The notes: generated by a model not told the origin, from the sequence alone. A stretch of 64,000 nt of DNA from Escherichia coli O157:H7 (GCF_013167455.1 NZ_CP038328.1), one strand, 5' to 3'. Counted from the stretch's first letter, positions 16,815-20,211 are shown. Made by a program: numbers and translations.

Positions 16815-18974
16815 ATGCTTTTTAGCTTTTTTCGAAATTTGTGCCGTGTTTTGTATCGCGTTCGCGTTACGGGTGACCCCCAGGCACTGAAGGGCGAGCG
16901 CGTTCTAATTACGCCTAATCACGTCTCTTTTATTGATGGCATTTTGCTTGGACTGTTTTTACCTGTGCGTCCAGTGTTTGCCGTTTACACCTCAATAAGC
17001 CAACAGTGGTATATGCGTTGGCTGAAATCATTTATCGACTTTGTTCCTCTCGACCCGACGCAACCTATGGCGATTAAACATCTGGTACGTCTGGTGGAAC
17101 AGGGCCGACCAGTGGTGATTTTCCCTGAAGGACGCATCACCACCACAGGCTCGCTGATGAAAATCTACGATGGCGCGGGTTTTGTCGCGGCGAAGTCTGG
17201 TGCAACGGTTATTCCTGTGCGTATTGAAGGGGCGGAACTTACGCACTTCAGCCGCCTGAAAGGTCTGGTTAAACGTCGCTTGTTCCCGCAAATTACTCTG
17301 CATATTTTGCCACCAACGCAGGTGGAGATGCCGGATGCGCCGCGTGCCCGTGACCGTCGCAAAATCGCTGGCGAAATGCTGCATCAAATAATGATGGAAG
17401 CGCGAATGGCGGTGCGCCCGCGTGAAACGCTGTACGAATCTTTACTGAGTGCAATGTACCGCTTCGGAGCAGGGAAGAAATGTGTCGAAGACGTCAATTT
17501 TACCCCAGACTCCTATCGCAAATTGCTTACGAAAACGCTGTTTGTTGGACGCATCCTTGAAAAATACAGTGTTGAAGGCGAACGCATCGGCTTAATGCTG
17601 CCCAATGCAGGCATCAGTGCGGCAGTGATTTTTGGGGCCATCGCCCGTCGCCGCATTCCCGCAATGATGAACTACACTGCTGGGGTAAAAGGGCTGACCA
17701 GTGCTATTACGGCGGCTGAAATCAAAACCATCTTCACTTCCCGCCAGTTTCTCGATAAAGGCAAACTCTGGCATCTGCCGGAGCAACTTACTCAGGTGCG
17801 CTGGGTCTATCTGGAAGATTTAAAAGCAGATGTCACCACTGCCGACAAAGTATGGATCTTCGCTCATTTGCTGATGCCGCGTCTGGCACAGGTTAAACAG
17901 CAGCCGGAAGAAGAGGCGCTGATCCTTTTTACCTCCGGTTCTGAAGGCCATCCAAAAGGCGTCGTCCATAGCCATAAAAGCATTCTGGCGAATGTCGAGC
18001 AGATTAAAACGATTGCCGACTTCACCACCAACGATCGCTTTATGTCGGCGTTACCGCTGTTTCACTCCTTTGGGCTGACGGTAGGCCTGTTTACGCCACT
18101 GCTCACAGGTGCAGAAGTGTTTCTTTATCCAAGCCCGCTGCATTACCGTATTGTGCCGGAGTTGGTGTATGACCGCAGTTGCACCGTGTTGTTCGGCACT
18201 TCGACTTTCCTCGGTCACTACGCGCGTTTCGCCAACCCGTATGACTTCTATCGTCTACGCTATGTGGTGGCAGGCGCAGAAAAACTACAAGAAAGTACCA
18301 AACAGCTTTGGCAGGATAAATTTGGCCTGCGCATCCTTGAAGGCTACGGTGTGACCGAATGCGCGCCTGTCGTTTCTATCAACGTACCGATGGCGGCGAA
18401 ACCCGGTACGGTAGGGCGTATTCTACCAGGAATGGATGCGCGCCTGTTGTCGGTCCCTGGTATCGAAGAGGGCGGACGCCTGCAACTGAAAGGGCCGAAC
18501 ATAATGAACGGCTATCTGCGGGTGGAGAAGCCAGGTGTACTGGAAGTGCCCACCGCCGAGAATGTTCGCGGCGAAATGGAGCGCGGCTGGTATGACACTG
18601 GCGATATTGTGCATTTTGACGAGCAGGGCTTTGTGCAGATTCAGGGCCGCGCAAAACGCTTTGCCAAAATTGCAGGCGAAATGGTGTCGCTGGAAATGGT
18701 GGAACAACTGGCACTTGGTGTTTCGCCAGATAAAGTCCATGCCACTGCGATTAAGAGCGATGCCAGCAAAGGCGAGGCACTGGTGCTTTTCACCACAGAT
18801 AACGAACTGACGCGCGATAAGTTGCAACAGTATGCCCGTGAGCACGGCGTGCCGGAGCTTGCTGTACCGCGTGATATTCGCTATTTGAAACAGATGCCAT
18901 TACTTGGCAGCGGCAAACCTGACTTTGTCACGTTGAAAAGCTGGGTAGACGAAGTGGAACAACACGATGAGTGA
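16815..18974 (+). CDS. aas: bifunctional 2-acylglycerophosphoethanolamine acyltransferase / acyl-ACP synthetase
   Basis: 719-aa ORF with acyltransferase (HxxxxD-like) and AMP-binding domains. Confidence 0.93.
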
Positions 18975-20211
18975 GTCAGTGCACACTAACACTTCGTTGT
19001 GGTCGAAGGGGATGAAAGCGGTTATCGTGGCGCAGTTTCTCTCTGCGTTTGGCGATAATGCCCTACTGTTTGCCACTCTGGCGTTACTGAAAGCGCAGTT
19101 CTATCCGGAGTGGAGCCAGCCCATCCTGCAAATGGTGTTTGTAGGTGCTTACATTCTTTTTGCGCCGTTTGTCGGGCAGGTGGCGGATAGCTTCGCCAAA
19201 GGCCGGGTGATGATGTTTGCCAACGGCCTGAAGCTGCTGGGCGCAGCCAGTATCTGCTTTGGTATCAATCCGTTTCTCGGCTATACGCTGGTGGGTGTTG
19301 GTGCTGCAGCCTATTCACCGGCGAAATACGGTATTCTCGGCGAATTAACCACGGGTAGTAAGTTAGTAAAAGCTAACGGTTTAATGGAAGCTTCTACCAT
19401 AGCGGCGATTTTGCTCGGTTCCGTAGCCGGTGGTGTGCTGGCTGACTGGCATGTCCTGGTCGCCCTGGCCGCATGCGCACTGGCCTACGGTGGTGCGGTC
19501 GTTGCCAATATCTACATTCCCAAACTGGCGGCGGCGCGTCCGGGGCAGTCCTGGAATCTCATCAACATGACCCGCAGTTTCCTGAATGCCTGCACCTCGC
19601 TATGGCGCAATGGTGAAACGCGTTTTTCGCTGGTGGGCACCAGTTTATTCTGGGGAGCGGGTGTCACGCTGCGTTTCCTGTTGGTGCTGTGGGTACCGGT
19701 GGCGCTGGGCATTACCGATAACGCTACGCCGACCTATCTCAACGCGATGGTAGCGATTGGTATCGTGGTTGGCGCAGGTGCGGCAGCGAAGCTGGTTACG
19801 CTGGAAACCGTGTCACGCTGTATGCCAGCCGGAATTTTGATTGGCGTGGTGGTACTGATTTTCTCCCTGCAACACGAGCAGCTGCCAGCCTATGCCTTGT
19901 TGATGCTGATTGGCGTGTTGGGGGGCTTTTTTGTCGTTCCGCTCAATGCGTTGCTACAGGAGCGGGGTAAAAAAAGCGTCGGGGCGGGGAATGCGATTGC
20001 AGTACAAAACCTTGGCGAAAACAGCGCCATGTTGTTGATGCTGGGCATTTACTCGCTGGCGGTAATGGTAGGCATCCCGGTCGTGCCCATTGGCATTGGC
20101 TTCGGTGCGCTATTTGCGCTTATGGTGCCGGATAAGTATAAACCTGATGCACCGCTTCAATTTCAGCTAATACGTCTTCGCTTAACTCCAGATGCAAACT
20201 TTCGATGTTAG
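18967..20211 (+). CDS. lplT: lysophospholipid transporter (MFS)
   Basis: ORF start overlaps aas stop by 8 nt; polytopic membrane protein. The ORF as found is 414 aa and its 3' end overlaps the convergent tas by 92 nt; start/stop assignment uncertain (alternative ATG at 19012). Confidence 0.8.

Follow-up and report, generated by a model that had tools for sequence, protein, structure and literature searches.

A 72-bp deletion as the very probable cause of the overlap between lplT and tas in an Escherichia coli O157:H7 chromosome

Within a 64,000-nucleotide stretch of an Escherichia coli O157:H7 chromosome (GCF_013167455.1, NZ_CP038328.1; the whole stretch is referred to here as the window), the reading frame of lplT runs 92 nt into the convergent gene tas. 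The cause of this overlap is very probably a single, lineage-restricted 72-bp deletion at the lplT/tas junction that is genuinely present in the chromosome. Lysophospholipids that LplT has flipped across the inner membrane are re-acylated by Aas, the product of the first gene of the aas-lplT operon; the genes, the operon, and the pathway involved are already well known. The allele is an ordinary strain-specific mutation, a deposited but, as far as could be found, undescribed deletion variant.

The 72-bp gap between lplT and tas

According to the original prediction, which was made from the sequence, lplT (ending at position 20211) and the minus-strand gene tas (ending at 20120) share 92 nt, and codon 398 of the lplT frame is CAA; the open reading frame (ORF) coordinates and the window sequence bear out both statements. 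The variant LplT scores 567.1 bits against the NCBIfam equivalog model NF008397 (cutoff, 297; wild type, 578 bits), Tas scores 772.4 bits against NF007912 (cutoff, 415) over profile positions 1 to 346 of 346, and Pfam assigns MFS_1 and Aldo_ket_red to the two products. The genes, their order and orientation, and the 8-nt aas/lplT overlap are as in the wild-type locus of K-12 (b2836-b2835 / b2834) and O157:H7. Tas is identical to the O157:H7 reference throughout, its coding sequence, including the TAA stop codon (20122-20120), being intact and unchanged at the DNA level, and LplT is identical to the O157:H7 protein WP_000004620.1 over residues 1 to 385, with residues 386 to 414 forming a new tail. 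The two loci differ at the 3' ends of the convergent genes: the wild-type locus encodes a 397-residue LplT and has a 31-bp spacer and two hairpins, whereas in the window 72 bp are gone, LplT has 414 residues, and the overlap with tas is 92 nt.

The original prediction had proposed alignment to reference lplT/tas as a check. Run against O157:H7 strain PA20, the alignment gave a clean 72-nt gap in the window, and K-12 MG1655 has the identical 72 nt. When a 701-nt query spanning the junction was compared to O157:H7 genomes, it matched at 100% identity in two pieces covering 773 reference bases. A BLAST search with the whole window against O157:H7 strain 17B6-2 (NZ_CP038414.1) returned two blocks of 100.000% identity, 1-20120 (20,120 nt) and 20119-64000 (43,882 nt), which overlap by 2 nt (CT) and between which 72 reference bases are missing; across the 64 kb, this search revealed no further differences from 17B6-2 that would hint at poor assembly or an edited sequence. 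The missing 72 bp correspond to L001 1820-1891 in the reference and to MG1655 2,972,639-2,972,710 (equivalently 2,972,637-2,972,708; our own coordinate arithmetic), and the sequence absent from the window is CTGGCAATAACGGCGCTGTGGATCTGGCAGCGCCGTCATTAATATTTAACGCCGGTTTTAACCGGCGTTAAT.

In the reference, 31 nt separate the end of lplT from the tas stop codon, and neither coding sequence reaches into the other. The deletion takes lplT codons 386 to 397 together with the stop codon (AITALWIWQRRH and stop), the 31-bp spacer, and both hairpins, while codon 385 still encodes Leu across the junction (CTG to CTT). Because the native stop codon is removed, the lplT frame runs on through 29 antisense tas codons to a TAG at 20209-20211. 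The original prediction was thus correct to suspect the end of LplT, but the foreign tail comprises 29 residues (386 to 414) rather than about 17. Codon 398 (CAA) belongs to antisense tas and is therefore unrelated to the native lplT stop. The deletion would have arisen once, by illegitimate recombination or slipped replication over the segment that forms the hairpins, with clonal inheritance since then.

Occurrence of the allele and alternative explanations

The distribution of the junction was assessed with a 48-nt probe, neither side of which can seed a megablast hit alone. The probe found the junction in none of 5,426 complete RefSeq E. coli genomes, 5,369 of which carry the intact wild-type segment. 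The exact 414-residue protein is present in NCBI and Logan sequences (a collection of 15 billion proteins) and is labeled LplT by NCBI; its four NCBI accessions are EOJ4345006.1, EOL0096896.1, EOL1791777.1, and EOL4110047.1 (collection entry P0001). The protein collection has it on 33 contigs, up to 5.6 Mb in length, and it occurs in 50 blocks of the gene-position index, from which 24 contigs were read. In the Logan assembly of SRR23062030 the junction is the same, and over 7.2 kb two single-nucleotide polymorphisms (SNPs), 18613 A>G as well as 23193 T>C, separate this assembly from the window; at both, the window agrees with 17B6-2. The recurrence of the same junction in independent assemblies, together with this slight divergence among carriers, indicates that the allele is inherited in a small O157:H7 lineage and is neither an artifact nor an edited sequence. 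Most likely, the mutation arose recently, is neutral or mildly deleterious, and is limited to a small clade.

We also considered that the deletion is real and adaptive, having been selected because it disables lysophospholipid recycling or rewires tas and lplT expression via convergent read-through. If so, loss of the tas 3' untranslated region (3'UTR) and terminator and a crippled helix 12 of LplT would lower recycling and couple aas-lplT and tas through convergent read-through. Lysophospholipid recycling has reportedly been shown of late to act as a signal in outer-membrane homeostasis. Losses of aas-lplT obtained in the laboratory (a 10.3-kb deletion from adaptive laboratory evolution, and ΔlplT and Δaas mutants) indicate that cells tolerate the loss of recycling and can at times profit from it: under LpxC inhibition, growth was higher without LplT/Aas (PMC13170283), and an evolved strain lacking the phosphotransferase system (PTS-) gained fitness on losing aas-lplT (PMC4666226). 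Those losses are complete and were obtained in K-12-type strains, whereas the window, from O157:H7, has a naturally occurring loss of 72 bp at the lplT 3' end whose effect on activity is a prediction. The allele is old enough for its carriers to differ by SNPs, and the deleted interval is nearly coextensive with the mapped tas 3'UTR. Yet only a few dozen contigs and no complete genome carry the allele, no recurrence was seen, and outbreak surveillance routinely turns up small clonal clusters. Furthermore, earlier work, as summarized in PMC11416262, showed that LplT/Aas helps to protect E. coli from phospholipase-mediated damage, so that its loss should cost fitness in the host. We therefore regard selection for the deletion as improbable, although it fares best among the alternatives to a lineage-restricted neutral or mildly deleterious mutation.

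An assembly or sequencing artifact, in which a hairpin-rich segment of 72 bp was dropped from a genome that is in truth wild type, was a worry raised at the outset, and it is very unlikely. The missing segment is strongly structured, the junction is absent from the complete genomes, and outside the gap the window matches the reference strain throughout, all of which would fit such an error. The exact 414-residue product, however, is found on dozens of independent contigs (NCBI, Logan per-run assemblies, and the single 5.6-Mb contig), and the SRR23062030 contig combines the identical junction with two private SNPs. It can also be reasoned that a de Bruijn-graph assembler is unable to yield junction k-mers that are missing from the reads and that a systematic error would have appeared in more than a few dozen of the many O157 assemblies.

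The remaining alternatives deserve next to no credence. The original prediction had allowed for a genuine convergent overlap, with LplT normally ending inside tas. The frame is indeed open for 92 nt into tas, and NCBI calls the 414-residue product LplT without comment, but LplT of K-12, O157:H7, and Citrobacter ends in ...ALWIWQRRH or ...QRRQA at 397 to 398 residues, the 31-bp spacer configuration is that of the 5,369 intact genomes, and nothing in 63 homologues corresponds to the tail; a conserved overlap is thus extremely improbable. The prediction's other suggestion, a stop-codon point mutation or a frameshift close to the lplT 3' end, was right in that the sequence does differ from the reference, and codon 398 is one substitution away from TAA. 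Taken literally, it is just as hard to sustain: the base-level alignments rule out a substitution or frameshift, showing a clean 72-bp gap with no substitutions or 1- to 2-nt indels, and codon 398 does not lie at the native stop position. An engineered laboratory deletion is comparably far-fetched. One of the equivalent junction alignments does end exactly at the tas stop codon, but its left end is in mid-codon, there is no scar, cassette, or restriction site, and the allele occurs in many surveillance-type assemblies.

Predicted effects on LplT and on transcription

LplT consists of two six-helix lobes, with the C-lobe spanning residues 194 to 397 (PMC11416262), and no PDB sequence matches it as a solved structure. 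We built AlphaFold2 models of the wild-type and variant proteins on a 65-sequence alignment. The wild-type model has a mean predicted local distance difference test (pLDDT) score of 94.4 and a 25-residue helix 12 (residues 372 to 396) with local pLDDT of 94 to 98. In the variant model the mean pLDDT is 92.4, helix 12 is reduced to 15 residues (372 to 386), and the tail has a pLDDT of ~50. The profile match to NF008397 shrinks from positions 1 to 399 of 414 in the wild type to 1 to 389 in the variant, with 11 bits lost, and the uncharged run of helices 11 and 12 shortens from 41 to 36 residues (353 to 388), after which PDKYKPD follows. In all 63 of the 63 diverse homologues compared (30 to 60% identity), the lost columns are hydrophobic and then R/K rich, as is usual where a transmembrane helix ends with a positive cytoplasmic anchor; the alignment contains no counterpart of residues 386 to 414 in any of these homologues. 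The invariant and near-invariant columns of the family (Q23 to E351) all lie before residue 385 and are intact in the variant. Among the residues retained within the identical segment 1 to 385 is D30, which is essential for LplT transport (PMC11416262).

The variant LplT would lose ~10 of the 25 residues of helix 12, the Trp belt (W391 and W393), and the cytoplasmic RR anchor, and it would gain a polar, proline-rich tail. The protein is probably unstable or poorly inserted, and the allele is probably hypomorphic or null, weakening lysophospholipid recycling by LplT/Aas. For LacY, another member of the major facilitator superfamily, Roepe et al. (1989, PNAS 86:3992) reportedly found that stability in the membrane depends on a short sequence close to the C terminus. 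The comparison holds in that the LacY C-terminal truncations, like the variant LplT, lose the end of the last helix of a 12-helix protein of this superfamily. It differs in that residues are removed in the LacY truncations, whereas in LplT they are replaced by 29 foreign residues. Fusion of Aas to LplT's C-terminal end disrupted the expression of LplT (PMC11416262). A 382-residue Shigella entry was considered as a sign that loss of the LplT C terminus is common; it reflects a different start call and has a normal C terminus.

The deleted DNA folds at -27.4 kcal/mol (z score, -7.1) and contains two hairpins, one at L001 1829-1855 and one formed by a perfect 26-nt palindrome at L001 1865-1890. 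As RNA, these fold at -19.1 and -17.2 kcal/mol in the lplT sense and at -17.2 and -21.5 kcal/mol in the tas sense (z scores of -3.8 to -5.3). The window has neither hairpin, and tas thus lacks its native 3'UTR and hairpins. A terminator scan of the wild-type segment calls only the plus-strand hairpin at L001 1829-1855, with the tail CATTAATATT. In K-12, Term-seq (Adams et al. 2021) places a curated 3' end at 2,972,707 (+), classed as antisense to lplT (PMC7815308, Supplementary file 1). This end lies 70 nt past the tas stop codon (coding sequence end, 2,972,637) and a few nucleotides beyond the second hairpin. Given that the deletion interval in MG1655 is 2,972,639-2,972,710, the deletion coincides almost exactly with the mapped 70-nt tas 3'UTR. 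The same Term-seq data set, the one consulted, lists no lplT-sense 3' end.

Without the hairpins, tas transcripts would run into antisense lplT, lacking a protective 3' stem, until Rho acts. A K-12 Rho-termination region that peaks at 2,973,171 (+), antisense to lplT, has a Rho score of 7.6 and a P value of ~1e-17 (PMC7815308, Supplementary file 2); its equivalent near position 19658 is a likely backstop for tas read-through. A replacement terminator was sought in the window, and the only candidate downstream of tas was a weak 5-bp hairpin at 20013-20029 (z score, -0.83), which is unlikely to substitute for the lost hairpins. In the opposite direction, aas-lplT transcripts would pass the new stop codon into antisense tas, the only strong downstream hairpins being gone. 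Thus, aas-lplT and tas probably read into each other until stopped by Rho, and the antisense overlap possibly lowers expression of both tas and lplT. Convergent read-through in general reduces expression of the gene opposite, and two papers provide background on this and on hairpin termination between convergent genes (PMC4731013; bioRxiv 10.1101/2022.10.23.513370); our search for literature on an lplT/tas terminator retrieved only general papers of this kind. As at shared hairpin terminators of convergent genes, the wild-type spacer has palindromic, GC-rich hairpins, with the tas-direction 3' end lying just past one of them. The likeness is limited in that the element is gone from the window and that, in the wild type, the U-tracts are poor and a role in the lplT direction is putative. 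In wild-type K-12, the tas mRNA 3' end falls 39 nt inside the lplT coding sequence (L005 5639-5708; MG1655 2,972,638-2,972,707), and the two transcripts therefore overlap even without the deletion.

Several points weigh against parts of this account of a lineage-restricted deletion that impairs LplT and termination. The 2-bp microhomology at the junction is expected by chance in ~16% of random junctions (our own calculation) and lends weak support to any mechanism of origin, and the number and kinship of the carrier isolates are known only roughly. In the AlphaFold2 model of the variant, the other 11 helices are kept as in the wild type with high confidence, the remaining 36-residue uncharged run could leave some activity, and the N-lobe of LplT alone is sufficient for interaction with Aas (PMC11416262). 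Neither hairpin has a textbook U-tract, the other tails being mixed A/U, and with no lplT-sense 3' end listed, their role as terminators in the lplT direction is inferred only.

Neighboring features and significance of the allele

The coordinates of the features discussed are collected in Table 1. The aas stop codon and the lplT start overlap by 8 nt at 18967-18974 (ATGAGTGA), an arrangement that usually signals translational coupling of the genes in an operon, here aas-lplT. In ~1% of complete E. coli genomes, a gene encoding a 551-residue DUF4139 protein lies between lplT and tas (strain N96, L006 2611-4266); the lplT-tas spacer is therefore also a site of gene presence and absence, the equivalent position in the window being the junction at 20119-20120.

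Table 1. Positions of features at the aas-lplT/tas locus in the window
Feature	Position	Strand	Basis or remark
aas, first gene of the aas-lplT operon	16815..18974	+	ORF listing, reference annotation
lplT deletion allele, 414 residues, ATG start	18967..20211	+	ORF listing, NCBIfam; TAG stop at 20209-20211
Equivalent of the K-12 Rho-termination peak, antisense within lplT	~19658	-	Own coordinate transfer; 800-nt mapping windows, coarse resolution
Sole hairpin resembling a terminator that remains downstream of tas (5 pairs, -7.1 kcal/mol, z score -0.83)	20013..20029	-	Terminator scan, folding
Remnant of LplT transmembrane helix 12 (variant residues 372-386)	20080..20124	+	AlphaFold2 models
Deletion junction, CT dinucleotide (2-bp microhomology)	20119..20120	.	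72 reference bases absent between 20118 and 20121
tas, NADP(H)-dependent aldo-keto reductase, 346 residues	20120..21160	-	ORF listing, NCBIfam
Overlap of the convergent lplT and tas coding sequences (92 nt), very probable product of the deletion	20120..20211	.	ORF coordinates
New LplT tail, 29 codons, antisense of tas codons 318-346	20122..20208	+	AlphaFold2 pLDDT ~50

Further features were noted elsewhere in the window. Tandem genes for small RNAs of the OmrA-B family lie at 16443-16524 and 16640-16727 on the plus strand (Rfam RF00079; 86 and 97 bits), between galR and aas as in K-12. On the far side of tas, a terminator-like minus-strand hairpin of 10 pairs with a T-rich tail (AGATTTTTCT) follows ygdR at 21239-21263 and corresponds to the K-12 Term-seq 3' end 2,971,521, which is listed for ygdR. 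Three tandem tRNA-Met genes occupy ~45074-45370 on the minus strand with a 110-bp period; they appear as self-matching BLAST repeats and are tRNAs in the reference annotation. The left end of the window contains the ygeH/ygeG/yqeH-K gene cluster.

The finding leaves the current understanding of LplT/Aas and Tas unchanged and matters mainly for annotation: the 414-residue "LplT" in NCBI is a deletion allele and not an alternative full-length form, and its uninterrupted frame leads automated pipelines to accept it as intact. Typed by PCR or k-mer search, the junction could serve as a clean 72-bp marker for following one O157:H7 sub-lineage. For the biology of the locus, the allele offers a natural test case of the need for the last half of LplT helix 12 and of what becomes of a convergent gene pair after the structured 3' region between its members is removed.

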